DNA from: Eledone cirrhosa
Lineage: Eukaryota
DNA: 64,000 nucleotides
Direction of reading: 5' to 3'
Assembly (NCBI GenBank): GCA_964016885.1
Contig: OZ024740.1
Location: 228,408,001 to 228,472,000 of the forward strand
The translations under genes and the position numbers were made by a program. Below, piece after piece: positions 20,349-64,000 of the stretch; position 1 is the stretch's first letter, and each line of letters opens with the position of its first letter. Under the pieces are notes generated by a model. The model did no database searches, had not been told where the DNA came from, and saw only the letters and a program-made list of their open reading frames with translations.

Positions 20349-20518
20349 ATTAACACTTAACATTTAATATTCTACCATACTATTTCATTCTAATACCATT
20401 ATAATTTTAAAGGATTGTAAATAAAACGAGTAAATCAGACAAAGTTGGAATTCCTTTATTAATATAATCTTCTATACACAATCATGCACACCCGTGTATA
20501 TTTATTTATATATATATC

Positions 20519-20560
<42 letters not shown>

Positions 20561-20564
<4 letters not shown>

Positions 20565-23150
20565 GTCCCCTCCAGTGATGTTCTTATTGTCGCTGGGGAC
20601 AGGAATGCGCGGACGGGGCCGGCTGATGATACAACACGGCGTATTCTAGGACGCTTCGCCCTAGGCGTACGCTGTGACAATCGCGAACGGCTGGTGTCCT
20701 TCGCGGATGCCAATCGTCTTATCGTCACCAACACCCGGTTCCAACATCCTCGCCGTCACCTCGTCACACGGAGATCCAATGACAGAAGAACGGCCAATCA
20801 GATTGACTACATCCTGGTCAGATCTCGGTGGGCCAGCTCAGTGATGGACTCGCGTGCGTATCGGGGGGCTGATACGGGCAGTGAGCATGGGTCAGACCAT
20901 ACTCTTGTTCGAGCAACCCTTCATCTGCGGCTCCGAGCGAAACCTTCTCCCAACCGCCAGAAAAGGATCGACATCTCGCGACTCAAGCTCGATGCTGGAA
21001 ATGCTTTCCGGCTAGAGCTGCGAAACCGATTCTAAATGCTGAGTAACGAAGGGGAACAGCAACCGGAGCAGGAGTCGAACGCGCTCAGGGCGGCGACGAT
21101 TGAGGTGGCCAGGGAGCTTCTCGAGTCGACCCGAAGACGCCATCGGGACTGGATCTCCAACGGCACTCTTGAACTCGCGGAGAGGGCGAGAGTGGCCCGA
21201 CTCGAGGGTGCACCCAATCTTCGAGATCTCCGATGTCGCACATCTCGGGCTATTCGGGCCGATCGGAATGAACACTGGTGCGAGTTTGCGGAGCAGACGG
21301 AGAGGACAGCAGCCTGTGGTGACTCGCTCAAGTTCTACCAACTGGTGAAGCGGGCCAGCCGAAGCAATACGGGTATCAGCGAGACGATCCATGATCGGAA
21401 CGGAGCGGTCATTACCAATCTTAATGACCGGCTAGTCCGATGGCAGGACCATTTCTCCAAGCTGCTCAACCACCCTCCACCATCCACGCCAACCTACGTG
21501 CAGCCTTCCGGAGAGGAATACGGGTGCAGCACTGCCCCTCCAACGGTCGAGGAGGTACGTGGTGTCCTGACACATCTCCGGAACAACAAGGCGCCGGGCG
21601 AGGATGGCGTTCCAGCTGAGGTCTACAAGGCCGAGCCTGATGTCTTCGCAGCTTGGCTCCATCGAGTCTTCTCCTCGGTGTGGGCGACGGGGCGGTTCCC
21701 TGGTGACTGGAGCGAGGCAACTCTCCTACCCTTCTTCAAAAAGGACGGCAGGAAACTGTCTTCCAACTACAGGGGTATCAGTTTAATTGACGTTGCTGCC
21801 AAGACCTTCGCAAATCTTCTGCTGAAGAGGTTCCAGGCCATCCGTGATGTCCGTTTCGTCCTTCTCAGGGTGGCTTCCGTTCGGGGAGGGGGTGCGTTGA
21901 TCAAATCTTCATTCTCCGGCGTGTCCTGGAACAGCGGTGGGCACATCAACAGCCTACCGTCCTCTGCTTCATCGACTTTGCAGCTGCCTTCGACTCTGTA
22001 GATTGGGAAGCCTTCTGGCGTATAATGCAGGCGGACGGCATCCCAGTGAAGCTGTTTCGTCTCATACAAGGCTACTACCTGTCGACTCGGGCTCGAGTGA
22101 GGGTCTATGGTGGGGAGACGGAGTCGTTCGATGTTGGGACCGGTGTTCGGCAGGGGTGTGCGCTATCGCCAACTCTCTTTAACTACGCCATTGACTACAC
22201 TCTCAACACAGCGCTCCGGGATTACCCGAGCGTAGAGCTCGGGAGAGGGGTCGTGGTGACAGACCTGGCCTACGCGGATGACATCGTGCTGATGGGCGCT
22301 AACGGGACAGATGTACAGGGAGCTCTCGAAACGGTGCACACTGCAGCCGCCGCTGTTGGTCTACGAATCGATGCCGCCAAGTCGAAGGTCATGACGTCAC
22401 TGGTTTCGCCTGATGCCTGGCAGCCAATATCTCTCGAGGGCGTGGACCTGGAGGATGTGGAGTCCTTCGTTTACCTGGGCTCAACAGTGGTTCCAACGGG
22501 ACAGGGCGCAGCCGAGGTCAAGCGTCACATAGGTGCTGCCAGATCCGCTTTTGGGCGCCTCCAGCGGTGTCTGTGGGATAGAAGAGAGATCTCCTCGGCG
22601 ACCAGAGGGTGAATCTACCAGGCTGTCGTTCGAACTATCCTCCTCTATGGGTGTGAAATATGGCCTATGAGGGTAGTCTATCAACGAGGGCTGGAGGTCT
22701 TCGACAATGACTGTCTCCGCCGCATTCTTCGCTGCCGAAGCGTTGATCGGGTGCCTATCACCAGTCTTCGTCTTCGCCTGAATCTTCGACCCCTTCGTTC
22801 AGTGCTTCTGCAACGGCGCTTGAGGTGGTTTGGTCACGCGGCCCGGCGCCCTGAGGGTGAACTGATCCGCGATGTTCTCCTCCCACCTCTACTCCCTAAC
22901 TGGCGCAAGCGCGTTGGCGGGAAGCTGAAGACTTGGGCAACGACGATCAAGGGGACCTCTCCGAACTCTCAGGTCCGCAGGTGGTCGGCCTGCACCGATA
23001 GAACCGTGACTGGCTCGCTATCTCCAGTGACCTAGCCCGGGACCGTCGTGCGTGGGCTGCCATGGTTCGGGATGCCGTCAGGATAAGGGAAGAAGCCGAC
23101 TCAACCCGTCCAGGGTGAATGTCGACACAAGTACAATTACAAGTAAGTAG
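20561..23150 (+). mobile_element. RTE-clade LINE, 5'-truncated, APE-RT pseudogene with few lesions
   Basis: APE motifs GDxNA, QIDYILV and SDH; KAPGEDG; NYRGISL; FIDFAAAFDSVD; GVRQGCALSP; YADD; LRWFGH. Stops at 21033 and 22610, frameshifts near 21855 and 22950. (CAAGTA)-like tail at 23128-23150. Confidence 0.92.
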
Positions 23151-50095: not shown

Positions 50096-50580
50096 AAAAA
50101 GACTACCTCTCTTTTGTCTGTCTGTTTGTCTCTTTTCCCCTTTCTTTCTCTCACTTTCTCTTTCTCACATACACACACAGTATAACACACTCTATCTCTC
50201 TGCCGCGCGCTCTCTCTCTCTCTCTCTCTCTCGTTCACACACACACACACACACACACACGGTGTCATTCACCCTTCCTTTCTTCTCTCTCTCTCTCACA
50301 CACACATACTGTCTTTCTTTATGTTATTGTTATTTAGCCTCAGATCAGCAACGATCGAGCAGTCATATGACCACATACCTTACGACTATAAGCATCTCAC
50401 CTTATTAATATATAATATTAACGACTGCATTATCCAATGCATTCTAGATATCAGAGAGAGATTTCGCTGCTGTTTCTAGCAGGTCACCCAGTCCTCGTTT
50501 TCTACTTTCTCTCACTTCCGCATTCAGCCTCACCCCTTCTACTCTCCCTGTGTCAATCGCTCCTTTCTTTCTCTGTACCT

Positions 50581-53500
50581 TGTATCTGTGTGTCTGTGTA
50601 TCTGTGTGTCTGTGTATCTGTGTATCTGTGTGTCTGTGTGTCTGTGTATCTGTGTATCTGTGTATCTGTGTATCTGTGTATCTGTGTGTCTGTGTATCTG
50701 TGTGTCTGTGTATCTGTGTGTCTGTGTGTGTGTATCTGTGTATCTGTGTATCTGTGTATCTGTGTGTCTGTGTATCTGTGTGTCTGTGTCTGTGTGTGTG
50801 TATCTGTGTATCTGTGTATCTGTGTATCTGTGTATCTGTGTGTCTGTGTATCTGTGTGTCTGTGTGTCTGTGTATCTGTGTATCTGTGTATCTGTGTATC
50901 TGTGTGTCTGTGTATCTGTGTGTCTGTGTATCTGTGTATCTGTGTGTCTGTGTATCTGTGTATCTGTGTGTCTGTGTATCTGTGTATCTGTGTATCTGTG
51001 TGTCTGTGTATCTGCGTATCTGTGTGTCTGTGTGTCTGTGTATCTGTGTGTCTGTGTATCTGTGTATGTGTGTCTGTGTGTCTGTGTATCTGTGTATCTG
51101 TATCTGTGTATCTGTGTGTCTGTGTATCTGTGTATCTGTGTGTCTGTGTATCTGTGTATCTGTGTCTGTGTATCTGTGTATCTGTGTATCTGTGTATCTG
51201 TGTGTCTGTGTGTCTGTGTATCTGTGTATCTGTGTGTCTGTGTATCTGTGTATCTGTGTGTCTATGTGTCTGTGAATCTGTGTGTCTGTGTGTCTGTGTA
51301 TCTGTGTATCTGTGTATATGTGTATCTGTGTCTGTGTGTCTGTGTATCTGTGTGTCTGTGTGTCTGGGTATCTGTGTATCTGTGTATCTGTGTATCTGTG
51401 TATCTGTGTCTGTGTGTCTGTGTATCTGTGTATCTGTGTATCTGTGTCTGTGTATCTGTGTATCTGTGTGTCTGTGTATCTGCGTATCTGTGTGTCTGTG
51501 TGTCTGTGTATCTGTGTGTCTGTGTATCTGTGTATGTGTGTCTGTGTGTCTGTGTATCTGTGTATCTGTATCTGTGTATCTGTGTGTCTGTGTATCTGTG
51601 TATCTGTGTGTCTGTGTATCTGTGTATCTGTGTCTGTGTGTCTGTGTATCTGTGTATCTGTGTATCTGTGTATCTGTGTGTCTGTGTGTCTGTGTATCTG
51701 TGTATCTGTGTGTCTGTGTATCTGTGTATCTGTGTGTCTATGTGTCTGTGTATCTGTGTGTCTGTGTGTCTGTGTATCTGTGTATCTGTGTATATGTGTA
51801 TCTGTGTCTGTGTGTCTGTGTATCTGTGTGTCTGTGTGTCTGGGTATCTGTGTATCTGTGTATCTGTGTATCTGTGTCCGTGTGTCTGTGTATCTGTGTA
51901 TCTGTGTATCTGTGTCTGTGTATCTGTGTATCTGTGTGTCTGTGTATCTGTGTATCTGTGTATCTGTGTATCTGTGTATCTGTGTGTCTGTGTGTCTGTG
52001 TATCTGTGTATCTGTGTGTCTGTGTGTCTGTGTATCTGTGTATCTGTGTGTCTGTGTGTCTGTGTATCTGTGTATCTGTGTGTCTGTGTATCTGTGTATC
52101 TGTGTGTCTGTGTATCTGTGTATCTGTGTCTGTGTGTCTGTGTATCTGTGTATCTGTGTCTGAGTGTCTGTGTATCTGTGTATCTGTGTGTCTGTGTATC
52201 TGTGTATCTGTGTGTCTGTGTATCTGTGTATCTGTGTATCTGTGTCTGTGTGTCTGTGTATCTGTGTGTCTGTGTGTCTGTGTATCTGTGTATCTGTGTC
52301 TGTGTGTCTGTGTATCTGTGTGTCTGTGTGTCTGTGTATCTGTGTATCTGTGTATCTGTGTATCTGTGTGTCTGTGTATCTGTGTATCTGTGTATCTGTG
52401 TCTGTGTGTCTGTGTATCTGTGTGTCTGTGTATCTGTGTATCTGTGTCTGTGTGTCTGTGTATCTGTGTGTCTGTGTGTCTGTGTATCTGTGTATCTGTG
52501 TATCTGTGTATCTGTGTATCTGTGTCTGTGTGTCTGTGTATCTGTGTGTCTGTGTGTCTGTGTATCTGTGTATCTGTGTATCTGTGTGTCTGTGTATCTG
52601 TGTATCTGTGTATCTGTGTATCTGTGTGTCTGTGTATCTGTGTATCTGTGTATCTGTGTGTCTGTGTGTCTGTGTATCTGTGTATCTGTGTATCTGTGTA
52701 TCTGTGTCTGTGTGTCTGTGTATCTGTGTGTCTGTGTGTCTGTGTATCTGTGTATCTGTGTATCTGTGTATCTGTGTATCTGTGTGTCTGTGTATCTGTG
52801 TGTCTGTGTATCTGTGTATCTGTGTATCTGTGTCTGTGTGTCTGTGTATCTGTGTATCTGTGTATCTGTGTATCTGTGTGTCTGTGTGTCTGTGTATCTG
52901 TGTATCTGTGTGTCTGTGTATCTGTGTATCTGTGTGTCTATGTGTCTGTGTATCTGTGTGTCTGTGTGTCTGTGTATCTGTGTATCTGTGTATATGTGTA
53001 TCTGTGTCTGTGTGTCTGTGTATCTGTGTGTCTGTGTGTCTGGGTATCTGTGTATCTGTGTATCTGTGTATCTGTGTATCTGTGTCTGTGTGTCTGTGTA
53101 TCTGTGTATCTGTGTATCTGTGTCTGTGTATCTGTGTATCTGTGTGTCTGTGTATCTGCGTATCTGTGTGTCTGTGTGTCTGTGTATCTGTGTGTCTGTG
53201 TATCTGTGTATGTGTGTCTGTGTGTCTGTGTATCTGTGTATCTGTATCTGTGTATCTGTGTGTCTGTGTATCTGTGTATCTGTGTGTCTGTGTATCTGTG
53301 TATCTGTGTCTGTGTGTCTGTGTATCTGTGTATCTGTGTATCTGTGTATCTGTGTGTCTGTGTGTCTGTGTATCTGTGTATCTGTGTGTCTGTGTATCTG
53401 TGTATCTGTGTGTCTATGTGTCTGTGTATCTGTGTGTCTGTGTGTCTGTGTATCTGTGTATCTGTGTATATGTGTATCTGTGTCTGTGTGTCTGTGTATC

Positions 53501-56500
53501 TGTGTGTCTGTGTGTCTGGGTATCTGTGTATCTGTGTATCTGTGTATCTGTGTCCGTGTGTCTGTGTATCTGTGTATCTGTGTATCTGTGTCTGTGTATC
53601 TGTGTATCTGTGTGTCTGTGTATCTGTGTATCTGTGTATCTGTGTATCTGTGTATCTGTGTGTCTGTGTGTCTGTGTATCTGTGTATCTGTGTGTCTGTG
53701 TGTCTGTGTATCTGTGTATCTGTGTGTCTGTGTGTCTGTGTATCTGTGTATCTGTGTGTCTGTGTATCTGTGTATCTGTGTGTCTGTGTATCTGTGTATC
53801 TGTGTGTCTGTGTATCTGTGTATCTGTGTATCTGTGTGTCTGTGTATCTGCGTATCTGTGTGTCTGTGTGTCTGTGTATCTGTGTGTCTGTGTATCTGTG
53901 TATGTGTGTCTGTGTGTCTGTGTATCTGTGTATCTGTATCTGTGTATCTGTGTGTCTGTGTATCTGTGTATCTGTGTGTCTGTGTATCTGTGTATCTGTG
54001 TCTGTGTATCTGTGTATCTGTGTATCTGTGTATCTGTGTGTCTGTGTGTCTGTGTATCTGTGTATCTGTGTGTCTGTGTATCTGTGTATCTGTGTGTCTA
54101 TGTGTCTGTGAATCTGTGTGTCTGTGTGTCTGTGTATCTGTGTATCTGTGTATATGTGTATCTGTGTCTGTGTGTCTGTGTATCTGTGTGTCTGTGTGTC
54201 TGCGTATCTGTGTATCTGTGTATCTGTGTATCTGTGTATCTGTGTCTGTGTGTCTGTGTATCTGTGTATCTGTGTATCTGTGTCTGTGTATCTGTGTATC
54301 TGTGTGTCTGTGTATCTGCGTATCTGTGTGTCTGTGTGTCTGTGTATCTGTGTGTCTGTGTATCTGTGTATGTGTGTCTGTGTGTCTGTGTATCTGTGTA
54401 TCTGTATCTGTGTATCTGTGTGTCTGTGTATCTGTGTATCTGTGTGTCTGTGTATCTGTGTATCTGTGTCTGTGTGTCTGTGTATCTGTGTATCTGTGTA
54501 TCTGTGTATCTGTGTGTCTGTGTGTCTGTGTATCTGTGTATCTGTGTGTCTGTGTATCTGTGTATCTGTGTGTCTATGTGTCTGTGTATCTGTGTGTCTG
54601 TGTGTCTGTGTATCTGTGTATCTGTGTATATGTGTATCTGTGTCTGTGTGTCTGTGTATCTGTGTGTCTGTGTGTCTGGGTATCTGTGTATCTGTGTATC
54701 TGTGTATCTGTGTATCTGTGTCCGTGTGTCTGTGTATCTGTGTATCTGTGTATCTGTGTCTGTGTATCTGTGTATCTGTGTGTCTGTGTATCTGTGTATC
54801 TGTGTATCTGTGTATCTGTGTATCTGTGTGTCTGTGTGTCTGTGTATCTGTGTATCTGTGTGTCTGTGTGTCTGTGTATCTGTGTATCTGTGTGTCTGTG
54901 TGTCTGTGTATCTGTGTATCTGTGTGTCTGTGTATCTGTGTATCTGTGTGTCTGTGTATCTGTGTATCTGTGTCTGTGTGTCTGTGTATCTGTGTATCTG
55001 TGTCTGAGTGTCTGTGTATCTGTGTATCTGTGTGTCTGTGTATCTGTGTATCTGTGTGTCTGTGTATCTGTGTATCTGTGTATCTGTGTCTGTGTGTCTG
55101 TGTATCTGTGTGTCTGTGTGTCTGTGTATCTGTGTATCTGTGTCTGTGTGTCTGTGTATCTGTGTGTCTGTGTGTCTGTGTATCTGTGTATCTGTGTATC
55201 TGTGTATCTGTGTGTCTGTGTATCTGTGTATCTGTGTATCTGTGTCTGTGTGTCTGTGTATCTGTGTGTCTGTGTATCTGTGTATCTGTGTCTGTGTGTC
55301 TGTGTATCTGTGTGTCTGTGTGTCTGTGTATCTGTGTATCTGTGTATCTGTGTATCTGTGTATCTGTGTCTGTGTGTCTGTGTATCTGTGTGTCTGTGTG
55401 TCTGTGTATCTGTGTATCTGTGTATCTGTGTGTCTGTGTATCTGTGTATCTGTGTATCTGTGTATCTGTGTGTCTGTGTATCTGTGTATCTGTGTATCTG
55501 TGTGTCTGTGTGTCTGTGTATCTGTGTATCTGTGTATCTGTGTATCTGTGTCTGTGTGTCTGTGTATCTGTGTGTCTGTGTGTCTGTGTATCTGTGTATC
55601 TGTGTATCTGTGTATCTGTGTATCTGTGTGTCTGTGTATCTGTGTGTCTGTGTATCTGTGTATCTGTGTATCTGTGTCTGTGTGTCTGTGTATCTGTGTA
55701 TCTGTGTATCTGTGTATCTGTGTGTCTGTGTGTCTGTGTATCTGTGTATCTGTGTGTCTGTGTATCTGTGTATCTGTGTGTCTATGTGTCTGTGTATCTG
55801 TGTGTCTGTGTGTCTGTGTATCTGTGTATCTGTGTATATGTGTATCTGTGTCTGTGTGTCTGTGTATCTGTGTGTCTGTGTGTCTGGGTATCTGTGTATC
55901 TGTGTATCTGTGTATCTGTGTATCTGTGTCTGTGTGTCTGTGTATCTGTGTATCTGTGTATCTGTGTCTGTGTATCTGTGTATCTGTGTGTCTGTGTATC
56001 TGCGTATCTGTGTGTCTGTGTGTCTGTGTATCTGTGTGTCTGTGTATCTGTGTATGTGTGTCTGTGTGTCTGTGTATCTGTGTATCTGTATCTGTGTATC
56101 TGTGTGTCTGTGTATCTGTGTATCTGTGTGTCTGTGTATCTGTGTATCTGTGTCTGTGTGTCTGTGTATCTGTGTATCTGTGTATCTGTGTATCTGTGTG
56201 TCTGTGTGTCTGTGTATCTGTGTATCTGTGTGTCTGTGTATCTGTGTATCTGTGTGTCTATGTGTCTGTGTATCTGTGTGTCTGTGTGTCTGTGTATCTG
56301 TGTATCTGTGTATATGTGTATCTGTGTCTGTGTGTCTGTGTATCTGTGTGTCTGTGTGTCTGGGTATCTGTGTATCTGTGTATCTGTGTATCTGTGTCCG
56401 TGTGTCTGTGTATCTGTGTATCTGTGTATCTGTGTCTGTGTATCTGTGTATCTGTGTGTCTGTGTATCTGTGTATCTGTGTATCTGTGTATCTGTGTATC

Positions 56501-58335
56501 TGTGTGTCTGTGTGTCTGTGTATCTGTGTATCTGTGTGTCTGTGTGTCTGTGTATCTGTGTATCTGTGTGTCTGTGTGTCTGTGTATCTGTGTATCTGTG
56601 TGTCTGTGTATCTGTGTATCTGTGTGTCTGTGTATCTGTGTATCTGTGTCTGTGTGTCTGTGTATCTGTGTATCTGTGTCTGAGTGTCTGTGTATCTGTG
56701 TATCTGTGTGTCTGTGTATCTGTGTATCTGTGTGTCTGTGTATCTGTGTATCTGTGTCTGTGTGTCTGTGTATCTGTGTGTCTGTGTGTCTGTGTATCTG
56801 TGTATCTGTGTCTGTGTGTCTGTGTATCTGTGTGTCTGTGTGTCTGTGTATCTGTGTATCTGTGTATCTGTGTATCTGTGTGTCTGTGTATCTGTGTATC
56901 TGTGTATCTGTGTCTGTGTGTCTGTGTATCTGTGTGTCTGTGTATCTGTGTATCTGTGTCTGTGTGTCTGTGTATCTGTGTGTCTGTGTGTCTGTGTATC
57001 TGTGTATCTGTGTATCTGTGTATCTGTGTATCTGTGTCTGTGTGTCTGTGTATCTGTGTGTCTGTGTGTCTGTGTATCTGTGTATCTGTGTGTCTGTGTA
57101 TCTGTGTATCTGTGTATCTGTGTATCTGTGTGTCTGTGTATCTGTGTATCTGTGTATCTGTGTGTCTGTGTGTCTGTGTATCTGTGTATCTGTGTATCTG
57201 TGTATCTGTGTCTGTGTGTCTGTGTATCTGTGTGTCTGTGTGTCTGTGTATCTGTGTATCTGTGTATCTGTGTATCTGTGTGTCTGTGTATCTGTGTGTC
57301 TGTGTATCTGTGTATCTGTGTCTGTGTGTCTGTGTGTCTGTGTATCTGTGTATCTGTGTCTGTGTGTCTGTGTATCTGGGTATCTGTGTCTGTGTATCTG
57401 TGTATCTGTGTATCTGTGTCTGTGTGTCTGTGTATCTGTGTGTCTGTGTATCTGTGTGTCTGTGTATCTGTGTATCTGTGTCTGTGTGTCTGTGTGTCTG
57501 TGTATCTGTGTATCTGTGTCTGTGTGTCTGTGTATCTGTGTATCTGTGTCTGTGTATCTGTGTATCTGTGTCTGTGTATCTGTGTATCTGTGTCTGTGTG
57601 TCTGTGTATCTGTGTATCTGTGTCTGTGTGTCTGTGTATTTGTGTATCTGTGTCTGTGTATCTGTGTATCTGTGTCTGTGTATCTGTGTATCTGTGTCTG
57701 TGTGTCTGTGTATCTGTGTATCTGTGTCTGTGTGTCTGTGTGTCTGTGTATCTGTGTATCTGTGTATCTGTGTATCTGTGTATCTGTGTCTGTGTGTATG
57801 TGTATCTGTGTATCTGTGTGTCTGTGTATCTGTGTATCTGTGTCTGTGTGTCTGTGTGTCTGTGTATCTGTGTATCTGTGTATCTGTGTGTCTGTGTATC
57901 TGTGTATCTGTGTATCTGTGTATCTGTGTGTCTGTGTATCTATTTGTCTGTGTATCTGTGTATCTGTGTCTGTGTGTCTGTGTGTCTGTGTATCTGTGTA
58001 TCTGTGTCTGTGTGTCTGTGTATCTGTGTGTCTGTGTGTCTGTGTATCTGTGTATCTGTGTATCTGTGTGTCTGTGTATCTGTGTATCTGTGTATCTGTG
58101 TGTCTGTGTATCTGTGTATCTGTGTGTCTGTGTATCTGTGTATCTGTGTCTGTGTGTCTGTGTGTCTGTGTATCTGTGTATCTGTGTGTCTGTGTGTCTG
58201 TGTCTGTGTGTCTGTGTGTCTGTGTATCTGTGTGTCTGTGTATCTGTGTGTCTGTGTATCTGTATCTGTGTGTCTGTGTGTCTGTGTATCTGTGTATCTG
58301 TGTCTGTGTATTTGTGTATCTGTGTCTGTGTGTCA
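50581..58335. repeat. 7.7-kb satellite of TCTGTGTA / TCTGTGTG / TCTGTG monomers with higher-order periodicity
   Basis: Uninterrupted array. Rare variants recur at 476, ~1676-1684 and ~2836-2844 bp spacings. Confidence 0.97.
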
Positions 58336-58522
58336 GTCTGTCTGTCTGAGGATAGTAGACGTGTGTCATATCGCTCTGTGATTTGGATTTTTACCTGCTA
58401 ATTTTGTGAGTGGATTTTTTTGAATTATTTTGTATAATTAACTGTAACCCCTAGTCTGGGACTCTAGACGTCGGGTAAATATATTTTCACCCCTTTTGGG
58501 GTGAAAAATAAATATTTGAGAA

Positions 58523-60280
58523 ATGTTTATCGATATCGTTGATAACGATATCGTCGAAAACGATATCGCCATATTGGAAGCGAACGCCACGCCGACCAAA
58601 AAAACAAGCGGGAAAGAGGGAACAACACTTCAAACTGTTGAACAACCCCTCCTCTCCAATGAAAAAAAGAATTTCAATTCAAATGAAAAAATTAATTTTC
58701 AAGAAAAAAATAACACCACAAATAAGGAAACCAACAACATTACAACAACAAACAAAGACAACATTTCTTTTGCCCAAACACTCAAGAGAGCCACGGAGTA
58801 CAAAGCCATTGACATCACGAACGCCAAGGAAAATTTGCTAGAGGCTAGAAAATACGTATCTTTTGGGGAGGATGGTTCTTTTACGATCAACTCCCCAGAA
58901 GAAGTGCGTGAACAGATTTACAAGAATACCGTAAGCTTCAGAACCATAACCAACGAAACGAGAAAGCCAGCGCAATTGACCGAAAGTCAAATCGAGCTGG
59001 TTCTGAAAGAAATTAAAAATGACATACTCTTTATTCAAAGAGGAAAGCTGTATGCCAGCATTATGGTCCGAATGAAGGACGAAATGCTGGCTCAGAAATA
59101 TTCGGTGGCACCTATAGTGTCACCACAATACACCTTCTTCCCCACATATAAAGGAAGAAGAACACAAAGGATAAGAATGTGGAGCCCTACGCCAGAAATT
59201 AACATCTGGTCCGTCCTAACTGGATTTACCGACCTAGATAAGGACATACTAATTTCAGCAGGGGAGTCCACCAGTGGACTGTTCGGGGGGAAAAGTCTGG
59301 AGGTTCTCTTACAGATGACACCTGAGAGAATCTCCGGAATACCCGACCGAGTGCTACTGGATGGGCGAACCTACATAAATATCACAGTGGAAGGCAGGAG
59401 ACCCTCATGTTACCACTGCGCTGGCAGAGGTCACCTGAGGACGGCCTGCCCTCTACTAACAACTAAAAAACCACTGCTACAAACACCACAACAACAACAA
59501 AAACAACCAGCACCACCATCACAAAAACAACAAAATACACTACCATCTCCACCAGAACAACAAAAACCAACAACACCACCACCACCACCACAACAACAAC
59601 AACAACATCAACAACAGCTCAAGAAAACAACCCAAAACACGGTCCCACCCAGCCCCACCCCACAGAACACAAATACAAAAACAGTTCATACACAACCCGG
59701 AGATATACCCCTCCCCTCCAATACGGAAGAGGAGCTCATATCGTCGGAAGACGAGGGGGCTCCCTTCCAAAAAGTGAAAAGAAAAAAACGTACACACACC
59801 ACAACAACAAAAATAACCCCACCTGACAACACAACACAGACAATAAAACGCAAACTCACTCAACAACAACAAGCAAAAACAAACACAACAACACAAAAAC
59901 TCTACACATACATAAACAAAAACAATGAAAACCTAACTTTAAAAATAGAAACCAACCCTTCGATACAAACCGAAGGGCCGAATTTCGTAACGGCAATGGG
60001 GCTCCCTAACCTGAAAATGGTGAAAATCCCACTTGACATTTTTAAAACTTTAAAAGACATGTACCCTGAGGACGTGGGCCCACCCTGCACCAGGCCACTC
60101 AACCGCGTCCTCCTGAAAGGTTTTCCCCTCCCCTCCTCAAACACCCACACAACTCCAAAGATCCCAACCCCTCCACACACCAATACCCCCACCCCACCAC
60201 AAACCACCACCCCACCCATCAACCCCGCCACCAGCCCCATGGAAACTGAGCGACCCGAACCCCGGGACGCAGAGAGGTAA
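58523..60280 (+). CDS. LINE ORF1p (gag-like nucleic-acid-binding protein), 585 aa
   Basis: Single zinc knuckle CYHCAGRGHLRTAC preceded by a Tx1-type IP..V.LDG...NITVEG segment. Long Q/P/T-rich disordered C-half with a basic KVKRKKR motif. Confidence 0.9.
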   Translation: MFIDIVDNDIVENDIAILEANATPTKKTSGKEGTTLQTVEQPLLSNEKKNFNSNEKINFQEKNNTTNKETNNITTTNKDNISFAQTLKRATEYKAIDITNAKENLLEARKYVSFGEDGSFTINSPEEVREQIYKNTVSFRTITNETRKPAQLTESQIELVLKEIKNDILFIQRGKLYASIMVRMKDEMLAQKYSVAPIVSPQYTFFPTYKGRRTQRIRMWSPTPEINIWSVLTGFTDLDKDILISAGESTSGLFGGKSLEVLLQMTPERISGIPDRVLLDGRTYINITVEGRRPSCYHCAGRGHLRTACPLLTTKKPLLQTPQQQQKQPAPPSQKQQNTLPSPPEQQKPTTPPPPPQQQQQHQQQLKKTTQNTVPPSPTPQNTNTKTVHTQPGDIPLPSNTEEELISSEDEGAPFQKVKRKKRTHTTTTKITPPDNTTQTIKRKLTQQQQAKTNTTTQKLYTYINKNNENLTLKIETNPSIQTEGPNFVTAMGLPNLKMVKIPLDIFKTLKDMYPEDVGPPCTRPLNRVLLKGFPLPSSNTHTTPKIPTPPHTNTPTPPQTTTPPINPATSPMETERPEPRDAER

Positions 60281-60303
60281 GTGCCTCTTTCTTTGCCACC
60301 AAC

Positions 60304-63300
60304 ATGGCTGTCTTAAGAGTAGGTTGTCTAAATGCGCGTGGCCTGGGCTCACCTTGGAAGCAAGCTAAACTTCTAAGTGACCTCAGGTCACAATGTGTAA
60401 ATGCGATGGTTATTTGCGAGGCCCGGATCAGCAGCATGCGACAGCTAACCCCCACCTTTGATGACTTTGAGATGCACGCATCTCTCTGTCAGCCCGGAGG
60501 TGGGGGTGGGGTTGTCGTTCTGCTGCAAAAACATCTGGGTCTCGCTACACAGACGGTACACTTGGACCCGGAGGGTCGACTCGTGGTTCTGGACCTTGGC
60601 AATGGCGAAGGCGAAGCTTTTAGGCTTGTCGCCGTATACGCCCCTTTTGGGGCAATGCGGTCGGACTTCTTCCATCGTCTGGAGACTTTTCTAGGGACGT
60701 CCCGCTCCTTGCTTTTAGTGGGGGACTGGAATGGTATCCTAGATGCACGTTGGGACTATGTGGGGGCATGTCCCGATAGAGGGGGGTGTAACAGCCTTAA
60801 GGGGTTAATCGGCCGATTCGACCTGGCCGATAGATACCGACTAGATTTTCCGACTGTACCAACCTGGACCTGGTCAAATAACAGTGGTCAATCTAGATCG
60901 TACCTAGATAGGTTCTTAGTTAGAATTAAGGATAGGGACTTTTTAAGTTGTCCAGAAATGCTCATGGTGGGCTATTCAGACCACAAGTTAGTGACCTGCG
61001 TAGTCCACCTTGATAGAACGCATAGGCAGGGGCCCGGTTACTGGAAGCTCAACTTGTCCTTGCCGGCAAGTAGAGCTTACAGGGACCGGATTAGAACCTT
61101 AGTTAAGGAGCAGTTGACGGGCGCCATCGTCAACAACAGGTGGTGGGGCTCTCTAAAAAGAGAGATTAGAGTAGTTTCAATAGGAGTTAGTAAGGAGTTA
61201 GCCTCAGATAGAAATAGGAAGGAAAGGGAGTTGGTAGTTAATGTTGAAGAGGCAATGAGAAGCGGCAACGTGGCCAGAGTGCAAGCGTCGAGAACGGTCT
61301 TGAACCAGTTCTTCGACGCGAAACACGAAGGCTGCGTTGTCCGAAGCAAAATACGTGCTCTGGGAAACGAGGGGACCAAAGCTGTTAGCTGGGCCCGCGT
61401 GACAGAAGCGAAAAGTGGGATTAAATCCACTATCCGGTCTTTGCGAGACCAGGATGGACGGCTGATCCTTGAACCTAAGCAAATGTGCGAGGCCTTTCAA
61501 AGGCACTTTGCCCAATTGTTCGGGAGGGGCGGGGAGCCGGTTGGAGATGTGGATTTCGGTCCATACCTCGACGGCCTGCCGCGTCTTTCGGACGGGGAGG
61601 CGAGGTCCTGCGACGGGCCGATCTCAGCTGCTGAAATAGGGGACGTGCTGAGCCTATGCGGCAAACGCAAATCTCCAGGACTCGATGGTCTGCCCTACGA
61701 ACTATATATTAATATGCCGGACTTGTTCCCCGATCTCCTCGAGGCGGTCTACTGCAACTGGCAACAGAACGGGAGAATTCCCTGTTCTGTGACCAAGGGC
61801 GTAGTCTCGCTAGTGAGGAAGGACGAGAACAAGGGGGATGACATTAGTAATTTTAGGCCCATAACTCTGCTAAATGCAGAGTTAAAGATTTTGGCGAAGG
61901 TGTTAGCGAAGAGGTTGGCGCTTGTCGTGGGGGGCCTGGTGGGAGATGCGCAGACATGCGCTATCCCGTCCAGGTCCATCCACGACAACCTCCACCTCAT
62001 GCGATACATCATAGAGAGGGTTGGGAACGAACCCGGCTTTGGTGGGGCCCTGATAAATTTAGATCAGTCTAAAGCGTTCGATAGGGTGGACCATGGTTAC
62101 CTGGATGCGGTGCTAGCGGCGGCTGGGTTCGGACCCGTTTTCAGGGGCTGGATCACTGCCATGCACAGCAGCCGCATCTGCTCTAGAGTCAAGGTGAACG
62201 GCTACCTTTCGGAGCCGTTCGAAATCACCCGCTCCATCCGACAGGGGTGCCCTCTCTCCTCCCTTCTGTATGTATTGACTCTCGAGCCATTACTGCGGAA
62301 GTTGGAGTTGTTGCAGGGCATCCCTTTGGAACCGGGATTGCGCAAAGCGGTGTCGGCCTACGCCGATGACGTAACAGTAATGGTGTCGACCGCCTCGGAA
62401 ATCGAGGCAATCGGCACCTTACTAGAGGAGTACGAAAGGTTGACAGGGGCTAAGCTGAACCGGGACAAGTCAGTCGCTTTGCAACTCGGCGAGTGGAGGG
62501 GCAAAGCGATGTCGTGCGACGGTATCGTCGGACGGTGGACGGAGGGCCCGGTGAAGTTGCTTGGGGTCTGGTTCGGACCGGACCTCCAGGTGGAGAAAAA
62601 CTGGGGTGAGGTGACGAATAGGGTGTTTGCACTGACCCAGAAGTGGGCCGAGTGCAAACTATCCCTAAAAGGTCGGGCGGAGGTGGCGAACGCTTACATA
62701 GCGTCCGTCATCTATTACCGCTTGACTGTCGTGCCTTGCCCGGGTGAGATCCTCGCCAAAATGGAGCGCGCCCTCTTTTATTTCCTTTGGAAGAAGAGGT
62801 CTCCTCTAGTGAGGAGATCCATCTGCTGTCAACACCCTTTGAAAGGAGGGCTGGGGATGCCGTGGCTAAAAATGCGTAAACACGCATTGAGGCTAAGGCA
62901 CCTCCACGTATTCCTCACCGGTCAACCGGTGTGGGCCCCGTTTGTGAGGCGAGCCTTCCCGAGGCTCGTCTCGCTCACCGAGCTACAGTCCTGGGTGAAG
63001 CAAAGACCGAGAAAACTGGGCGACTGGCACACCGAGTGTGCCCAGGCGCTCACGGCTCTCTGGCAGGCGGACCCGGCTATCGACGGAGACTCCACCTCGT
63101 CATTCTATAGAGGGCTGGTGGTTAGCGGGTGCGACGACGCCCTCGGAGAAGCCCTAGGCATGGAGGAGGACGAACTGGCCAGTCTATTCGGTAGGACTTT
63201 CGGCCCGGGACCTATGGACAACTTCCAGAAGTCCTTGGCCTGGCAGTGCTACCGAGGGGCTCTGCCCGTTCGGGATAAGCTCTACAGACACGGGCGCCCG

Positions 63301-63741
63301 GGTAGGGACCCCTCGAAAAAGATCTGTCCCAGATGCGTGCGCGACGAGGAAACCGTCGCGCACGCATTGATGCACTGCCCGCGCGTTGCCGATCTGTGGG
63401 GCTATGTCGAACGACTGCTGTCACGGGTGGGACCAATTAGGTTGACCACCGAGTCCATTGTAACGATCAAGCCGCCTCCCCCCTTCAAAAATGAAGGAGA
63501 GGCGGTCTTCCTCTGTGTAATAGCCATGGTAAAAGAGGCTATATGGTGGACGCGTCTGAAAGGGCTGAGGTCGGACACCTTTCTCTCCGGCCAACAACTG
63601 GTCCTTTTCTTCCGATACCATTTCGGAAGAAGGATCAGGATGGAGAGAGAGGTGCTCCACTCCAGCCAGTTTTATGAAAGGTGGGTGAAAGTTGCGAGAA
63701 TGGCCCGTGTGAATGGGCCTTCTCTCTACCTCAGCCTGTAG
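60304..63741 (+). CDS. LINE ORF2p: APE endonuclease, reverse transcriptase and C-terminal CCHC, 1145 aa
   Basis: LNARGL, VYAP, GDWN, YLDRF, SDH, GYWKLN; KSPGLDG, FRPITLLN, LDQSKAFDRVDH, RQGCPLS, AYADD; CPRC..EETVAHALMHC. No stops or frameshifts. Confidence 0.96.
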   Translation: MAVLRVGCLNARGLGSPWKQAKLLSDLRSQCVNAMVICEARISSMRQLTPTFDDFEMHASLCQPGGGGGVVVLLQKHLGLATQTVHLDPEGRLVVLDLGNGEGEAFRLVAVYAPFGAMRSDFFHRLETFLGTSRSLLLVGDWNGILDARWDYVGACPDRGGCNSLKGLIGRFDLADRYRLDFPTVPTWTWSNNSGQSRSYLDRFLVRIKDRDFLSCPEMLMVGYSDHKLVTCVVHLDRTHRQGPGYWKLNLSLPASRAYRDRIRTLVKEQLTGAIVNNRWWGSLKREIRVVSIGVSKELASDRNRKERELVVNVEEAMRSGNVARVQASRTVLNQFFDAKHEGCVVRSKIRALGNEGTKAVSWARVTEAKSGIKSTIRSLRDQDGRLILEPKQMCEAFQRHFAQLFGRGGEPVGDVDFGPYLDGLPRLSDGEARSCDGPISAAEIGDVLSLCGKRKSPGLDGLPYELYINMPDLFPDLLEAVYCNWQQNGRIPCSVTKGVVSLVRKDENKGDDISNFRPITLLNAELKILAKVLAKRLALVVGGLVGDAQTCAIPSRSIHDNLHLMRYIIERVGNEPGFGGALINLDQSKAFDRVDHGYLDAVLAAAGFGPVFRGWITAMHSSRICSRVKVNGYLSEPFEITRSIRQGCPLSSLLYVLTLEPLLRKLELLQGIPLEPGLRKAVSAYADDVTVMVSTASEIEAIGTLLEEYERLTGAKLNRDKSVALQLGEWRGKAMSCDGIVGRWTEGPVKLLGVWFGPDLQVEKNWGEVTNRVFALTQKWAECKLSLKGRAEVANAYIASVIYYRLTVVPCPGEILAKMERALFYFLWKKRSPLVRRSICCQHPLKGGLGMPWLKMRKHALRLRHLHVFLTGQPVWAPFVRRAFPRLVSLTELQSWVKQRPRKLGDWHTECAQALTALWQADPAIDGDSTSSFYRGLVVSGCDDALGEALGMEEDELASLFGRTFGPGPMDNFQKSLAWQCYRGALPVRDKLYRHGRPGRDPSKKICPRCVRDEETVAHALMHCPRVADLWGYVERLLSRVGPIRLTTESIVTIKPPPPFKNEGEAVFLCVIAMVKEAIWWTRLKGLRSDTFLSGQQLVLFFRYHFGRRIRMEREVLHSSQFYERWVKVARMARVNGPSLYLSL

Positions 63742-64000
63742 GTGGAACAGAAAGAAGGGAGCACCCTCTCTTTGTGCTCCCGTGGAGAAGGGTCGCACGC
63801 TTTTTTTCGGGGGTGTATGTGACCCCAAAACGATCCCTCCCTATTGAGGACCTTCTTGTTATTATTTTGTTTGTTATATTTTTCTTACTCGATTTTTATG
63901 TAAACTCCCCCCACCCATGTACATGTCCCTTTCTTTTGTGCCCTAGTGGCAAATAAACAGAAATTTATCTGTGTAACTGTGTCTGTGTGTCTGTGTATCT

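Follow-up and report, generated by a model that had tools for sequence, protein, structure and literature searches.

An intact Tx1-like LINE of Eledone cirrhosa and its likely insertion at TGTCT sites in (TGTC)n-type microsatellites

Introduction

In the genome of the cephalopod Eledone cirrhosa, a stretch of 64,000 nucleotides (nt) (the window; contig OZ024740.1, positions 228,408,001 to 228,472,000, with positions below counted from its first letter) carries a long interspersed nuclear element (LINE) embedded in a satellite with the 8-bp unit TCTGTGTR. The question raised by this locus is what brought the element there: is the satellite its target, did the element itself create the satellite, or is some other sequence being recognized? 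A preliminary description of the window had noted that both open reading frames (ORFs) are uninterrupted, that the same 8-bp repeat lies on both sides, and that an AATAAA stands close to a junction devoid of poly(A). We find all of this to be correct: ORF1 (585 amino acids) and ORF2 (1145 amino acids) are open, and the repeat occupies 50570-58333 and resumes from 63966 past the end of the window. Our answer, to which we would assign a probability of roughly 0.78, is that the element is an intact member of a young family of Tx1-like LINEs whose copies are found at TGTCT sites in microsatellites of the (TGTC)n type, where an endonuclease nick and then reverse transcription, primed on target repeats in a tail of the element RNA, likely put them. 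A biased flank, a fixed 3' spacing, the absence of poly(A), duplications that mostly measure 14-18 bp where they can be read, 5' TCTG runs, stacking of copies and a recent spread are all directly observed.

The genome-wide target of the family

A 24-mer taken from the 3' terminus of the element served to locate the 3' ends of the family throughout the genome and has 210 exact matches (a control gave 0). The tetranucleotide RTCT follows within 3 nt at 198 of these 210 ends, a test that 3.07% of 398,400 positions pass in randomly drawn DNA (200 kb); for comparison, elements that lack long terminal repeats (non-LTR elements) have been classed as microsatellite-specific when one repeat type is present in more than 20% of their flanks (PMC4494074), a proportion that our 198/210 exceeds. 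Among the matches listed, 90 of 100 ends are followed by GTCT. Over 137 distinct junctions the consensus is (N)TGTCTGT, with G at position +3 in 129 and A in 8; all eight of the latter have G at +7, and TATCTAT occurs in none of the 137. Moreover, at least three RTCT words lie within 40 nt in 90 of 106 flanks, as opposed to 0.29% of the background. The usual flank is (TGTC)n, that is (GACA)n, which is rare in this genome: the 200 kb of random DNA contain a single (ACAG)3 or longer array against 326 AT, 79 AC and 39 ACAT arrays.

The register of these junctions is strict. Exactly two bases separate the end motif from RTCT in all 100 junctions among the matches listed; at +1, 111 of the 137 distinct junctions have the T of the element, and the other 26 have C, G or A. 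Poly(A) was found neither at the window junction nor at any of the 136 junctions examined. The preliminary description had proposed just such a tabulation of flanks, naming random flanks or poly(A) tails as the outcome that would speak against targeting, and what emerged was neither. Its fallback guess of a TATC- or TGTC-type repeat proved the right one, with TGTCTGT at the junctions of this family and TATC at those of its relatives. Its first choice, the (TCTGTGTR)n satellite, was not supported, in that only two of the 137 distinct junctions enter that unit and both belong to the copies at the window locus.

As a separate observation, members of three different Tx1-like families (L138, L232 and L294) have all inserted at one TATCTGT site within a different repeat that is probably a LINE; the site may be a common hotspot outside microsatellites.

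Flanks, duplications and the age of the copies

The 5' and 3' flanks are more alike within a locus than between loci (mean cosine of 0.30 against 0.067); the best match to a flank is the opposite flank of the same locus for 18 of 85 loci and is among the top five for 38, and loci elsewhere carry their own local repeat unit on either side. Twenty copies are incomplete, meaning that they have no intact 5' part; five of these have the repeat on their 5' side, one has an internal deletion, one abuts a gap, and one (L138) lies in non-repeat DNA between a 17-bp duplication with one mismatch. The clearest target duplications measure 14-18 bp (L103, L126, L162, L163, L169 and L187). Because paired flanks are alike, because the repeat is found 5' of incomplete copies and because of these duplications, the target repeat appears to have existed before the insertion.

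The 5' junction has a signature of its own. A pure run of TCTG has a median length of 17 nt there and of 8 nt at the 3' junction, the 5' run being the longer in 62 and the shorter in 20 of 85 copies (p=1.5e-6). Both copies in the array of the window have (TCTG)3 at this junction, and there is one other such run in the 26 kb of satellite. Near-identical copies on different contigs (L109, L110, L208 and L150) have an identical interrupted run of TCTG upstream, an indication that the run travels with the element. The 5' ends of the elements, both in the window (58337-58360) and in a TATC relative (at the downstream junction of L326), open with sequence complementary to the upstream repeat. The RNA hairpins predicted for the 5' and 3' ends were not clearly better than those of shuffled sequences (z of -0.6 to -2.1).

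Among the matches listed, at least 81 of 100 3' ends belong to copies that keep their 5' end, 24 of 85 full-length copies have ORF1 and ORF2 both open, and L109 and L110, on different contigs, are a single substitution apart. The variants of ORF2 that are shared between copies comprise 42 synonymous and 27 replacement changes, the singletons 303 and 604 respectively, a pattern as expected for a lineage that would have been selected for activity. Judged from these sequence comparisons, the family is young, mostly full-length, recently spread and often stacked. The picture of a Tx1-like, sequence-specific and recently active family, already put forward in the preliminary description, is supported. 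One stack is an array of nine head-to-tail copies with spacers of 11-1151 nt (G000:C3:358,729,000-358,781,100; L093-L098). Since some of its pairs are 1-8 substitutions apart, with a common 78-bp deletion, and others 20-36, both duplication and fresh insertion appear to have built it.

Several observations weigh against this account. Six of the 137 junctions are off consensus. At the other 12 of the 20 incomplete copies, the 5' edge as it now stands is not bordered by the repeat; several of these appear to be internal deletions or later interruptions. Duplications within pure repeats are unreadable, and the sizes given above come only from readable sites. Finally, 46 of the 100 listed 3' ends have a same-strand neighbour within 20 kb, so that these ends represent 69 independent clusters, which is fewer than the ends themselves, and some members of the arrays arose by duplication, being 1-13 substitutions apart.

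A proposed mechanism, and the switch between TGTC and TATC

Insertion could proceed as follows. The APE domain would nick the (GACA)n strand, and the transcript of the element would read past its AAUAAA into the downstream repeats. The resulting UGUCU tail of the RNA would then pair in register with the freed strand, and reverse transcription would be primed there. At its other end the RNA likely carries a few UCUG units that would assist insertion at full length and provide the next copy with a new site. Ordinary cleavage falls 10-30 nt downstream of AATAAA; here AATAAA lies 7 nt before the end of the element, and the element gives way to TATCTGTG without poly(A), so that a tail of repeat would be left on the RNA, which would explain why poly(A) is absent. 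The presence of target repeats on the RNA is also suggested by the fixed register of junctions whose boundary base varies, and by the greater length of the pure TCTG runs at 5' as compared with 3' junctions.

The preference for TGTC is not shared by the relatives of the family, which use TATC. A related 3' motif occurs 11,901 times (a few matches being other repeats) and is followed by RTCT in 10,012 cases; among the matches listed, ATCT was present in all 100, which places these relatives in (TATC)n, and their truncated copies have TATC on the 5' side too. In a reverse transcriptase tree rooted on outside homologues, the TGTC family is nested within TATC-flanked lineages (ultrafast bootstrap 99, 92 and 100; 78 for the in-genome clade), so that the deep direction of change is from GATA to GACA and the family probably arose from (TATC)n-targeting ancestors. 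There is also a sibling subfamily, 91-96% identical to the element and flanked by TATC in 10/10 copies. Three siblings are nested, with short branches, in the TGTC clade; they have in common C31G, R46Q, R381Q and F775L in ORF2 as well as two bases in the 3' untranslated region (UTR), one of them position 63958.

This last position deserves attention. When 12 older TGTC-group copies were contrasted with three sibling and five older TATC-flanked copies over 3,661 nt (L285 and L320, whose analysed stretch includes no 3' end, were excluded), 63958 was the sole site that separated the TGTC group from both TATC groups, with C in 11/12 against T in 8/8. Its state produces either ACAGA or ATAGA, the complements of TCTGT and TCTAT; the C of the window element gives ACAGA, complementary to its target TCTGT, and the closest TATC-flanked relatives have T. 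Seven further sibling-type copies (91-95% identical) are all flanked by TATCT, and six of them have T. The ATAGA ends number 992 with RTCT, with ATCT in 100/100 among the matches listed, and C is present in all 57 copies picked by their 5' end. As the siblings nest inside the TGTC clade, base and target appear to have changed together twice. Such data raise the possibility that the enzyme nicks both repeats and that the 3' end of the RNA, through an internal AYAGA motif 7 nt from its end together with the read-through tail, decides which of them can prime, in which case a one-base change in the RNA would have moved the family between (GATA)n and (GACA)n, twice, with almost no change in protein.

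We regard this idea as doubtful. The largest group of relatives (the 11,901 ends) does not have the motif and is nevertheless in TATC; L288 has an A at this position with a TGTC flank and L358 an A with TATC; and five of 100 C-bearing ends among the matches listed have TATCTAT. The sibling endonuclease also carries C31G and R46Q, the predicted 3' fold is weak (z about -2), and the base at 63958 may have changed in compensation, or may be a mutation that a hairpin templated from the flank. We put first the reading in which the enzyme, rather than the RNA, would discriminate G from A. The L1 endonuclease is described as touching DNA through a hairpin loop and a basic patch that includes His45 (PMC8565326), and a change in the enzyme is the simpler reading because this patch is near the region that holds residue 46. 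Two results count against the enzyme: N193, the first candidate residue, does not track the target, and in the same contrast of copies no endonuclease site separates the TGTC group from both of the nearest TATC groups. Residue 193, at the tip of the predicted hairpin, is N in 15/15 TGTC copies and R in 10/12 TATC copies; copies with H193 have either target, and it was rejected as the switch.

Another member of this assemblage stands apart. A relative of the TATC type has two copies (L264:852 and 6718, minus strand) whose ends run into a common non-repeat sequence, starting TCAATATT; both its endonuclease hairpin and its flank are unlike those of its kin, and it possibly has another target.

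Could targeting be illusory? Insertions might occur widely but persist, or be amplified by recombination, in these repeats alone, or assembly might have produced false junctions. Tandem arrays with near-identical members do exist and the mapped reads, those at the repeat having been skipped, did not span the window junction, although reads of four runs cover the element. However, the very youngest copies have the same bias, AT, AC and ACAT arrays, though much more frequent, do not supply the junction unit, the register is fixed to the base in ends that form 69 separate clusters among the 100 listed, and the junction bases of sister families remain distinct within shared tracts, so we consider this explanation highly improbable. 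Least tenable of all is the proposal, made in the preliminary description, that the 8-bp satellite is itself the target or was seeded by the tail of the element: two full-length copies do lie in one array, but other copies occupy many different local units that flank them on both sides, upstream of the first copy lie 7.8 kb of satellite and no element, no repeat other than the local one is added at the 3' junctions, and the genome-wide flanks already contradict it.

The satellite and its two copies

The 5' part of the satellite (50570..58333, plus strand) has a period of 8 and 994 copies of its unit. The preliminary description had suggested extending the sequence past 64000, and this was informative: the satellite continues for 11.4 kb, then comes a second full-length copy of the LINE, 99.3% identical to that of the window, and then a further 6.9 kb of satellite, giving about 26 kb of repeat with its right end near extended coordinate 87,900. 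There are 34 differences between the two copies, on a par with unlinked copies, and the two separate in a tree of young copies whose internal support is weak. Because of these 34 substitutions, and because their 3' junctions are unlike each other, they are probably separate insertions into one array. After the window copy, target DNA resumes at 63966..64000 (plus strand) as TATCTGT and the satellite runs on past the window. This junction is the minority A form of the TGTCTGT consensus; therefore the satellite is an incidental host that offers a tolerated variant site, and not the target.

The array has some history of its own. In the region 58308-58339, the 26 nt preceding the 5' junction of the first copy match the right edge of the array (G000:C1 near 228,495,890; extended coordinate about 87,890) and end in a variant that is unique within the array. 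The first copy may have inserted near an old end of the array; about 18 kb of satellite, as well as the second copy, would then be later additions within the 3' duplication of the first copy. Rare satellite variants reappear at spacings of about 476, 1160 and 2840 bp between 51000 and 56700, a higher-order structure. A second long satellite, with a 12-bp unit and a length of at least 5.5 kb, lies about 10 kb past the end of the first (G000:C1 about 228,505,500-228,511,000; L149). As to the claim that the other autonomous elements of the window are decayed, it stands for the one checked, an RTE-like LINE at 20463-22612 that is split over three ORFs.

Organization of the element

All features of the LINE are on the plus strand. 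It spans 58349-63964 (the end being 63964 or 63965), a size of 5.6 kb, and is preceded by the pure (TCTG)3 (58337..58348), which is foreign to the satellite and probably arrived with the RNA of the element. The 5' UTR (58349..58522) has a start common to other copies. ORF1 (58523..60280) encodes a single CCHC knuckle (amino acids 296-309) and a C-terminal half rich in Q, T and P; it has no Pfam match, and its atlas matches to zf-CCHC and RRM-like domains (0.89-0.92) are unconfirmed leads only. An ORF1 with RNA-binding and CCHC motifs is a feature of the Tx1 clade. ORF2 (60304-63741, counted from its Met, with the stop at 63739-63741) begins with the APE endonuclease (60304..61053), in which the catalytic residues E39, Y112, D141, N143, D202, D226 and H227 are all present and a minor-groove hairpin is predicted at about amino acids 189-199. 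A structure model of this domain, built with an alignment, has a pLDDT of 92.6, its top fold match being the L1 endonuclease (TM about 0.8). The reverse transcriptase region (61621..62883, with YADD at amino acid 686) and a C-terminal CCHC zinc finger (63325..63378) follow, and the 3' UTR (63742..63964) contains the AATAAA at 63952-63957, next to the C at 63958.

The succession of ORF1 and an ORF2 with APE, reverse transcriptase and C-terminal zinc finger provides the hallmarks of the L1 group of APE-type non-LTR elements. The best PDB match of ORF2 is the human L1 ORF2p (173 bits, with R2 at 68). It scores 319-323 bits, at about 28-30% identity, against two fish proteins that are named TX1 or cluster with TX1-named proteins, names that were themselves given by similarity, as against 65 bits for the RTE-like element of the window. 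Because the fish proteins score so far above human L1, the element likely belongs to the Tx1 clade. Its nearest named protein match is from Argonauta hians (68%).

Comparison with known elements

The closest parallels are Kibi and Koshi, Tx1 elements of teleosts that insert into (TC)n and (TTC)n (PMC4494074, PMC3812793). Like ours they are described as APE-type, Tx1-like LINEs found in a fixed orientation in pyrimidine-rich microsatellites; with a junction consensus of TGTCTGT, the present family, whose target is (TGTC)n and whose relatives use (TATC)n in a cephalopod host, is set apart from their (TC)n and (TTC)n by its target. The crocodilian Tx1 elements on (TTCC)n or (TTTC)n also have tetranucleotide targets and several related families together, but their unit is another one and their insertions are described as preferential, whereas here young siblings differ in target by one base (PMC4494074). 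R1Bm and SART1Bm likewise have a site-specific APE endonuclease, and for both it has been proposed that a target-like 3' end of the RNA anneals and sets the start of reverse transcription (PMC7265360); these belong to the R1 clade, however, and SART1 has poly(A) and a telomeric target, unlike the dispersed target without poly(A) described here.

In Octopus vulgaris, 13 families of recently active L1-Tx1 with 421 insertions have been reported (PMC13282606), in passages that state no target site; both the elements and the genome are probably of the kind described here. The portions of PMC13282606, PMC8967140, PMC10294476 and PMC3747384 available to us mention Tx1 without GACA or GATA targets, and the titles and abstract openings of the literature searched name no GACA- or GATA-targeting LINE; Repbase, the 2004 work of Kojima and Fujiwara, and Fig. 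3 or the supplement of PMC4494074 may list this target. As a target (TGTC)n is apparently unreported, and it falls within the known microsatellite-targeting kind of Tx1.

Significance

How APE-type LINEs recognize microsatellites has been described as not well understood (PMC3812793), and loops grafted onto the L1 endonuclease altered its nicking profile, but the specificity of the donor was not carried over (PMC1950540, PMC8565326). In the present case nature has provided a sibling pair, about 94% identical, with four fixed differences in ORF2 and two in the 3' UTR among the copies compared, and with targets one base apart. With so few differences, the choice between enzyme and RNA becomes a small swap experiment, for which the TGTC family offers intact copies. 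Its compact size (5.6 kb) and its mostly full-length insertion into a rare repeat also make this LINE interesting as a tool for site-specific insertion. If the RNA were to set the target, this would be a naturally reprogrammable LINE integrase; if the enzyme alone matters, the family would still offer a new target and a switch of specificity caught in the act.

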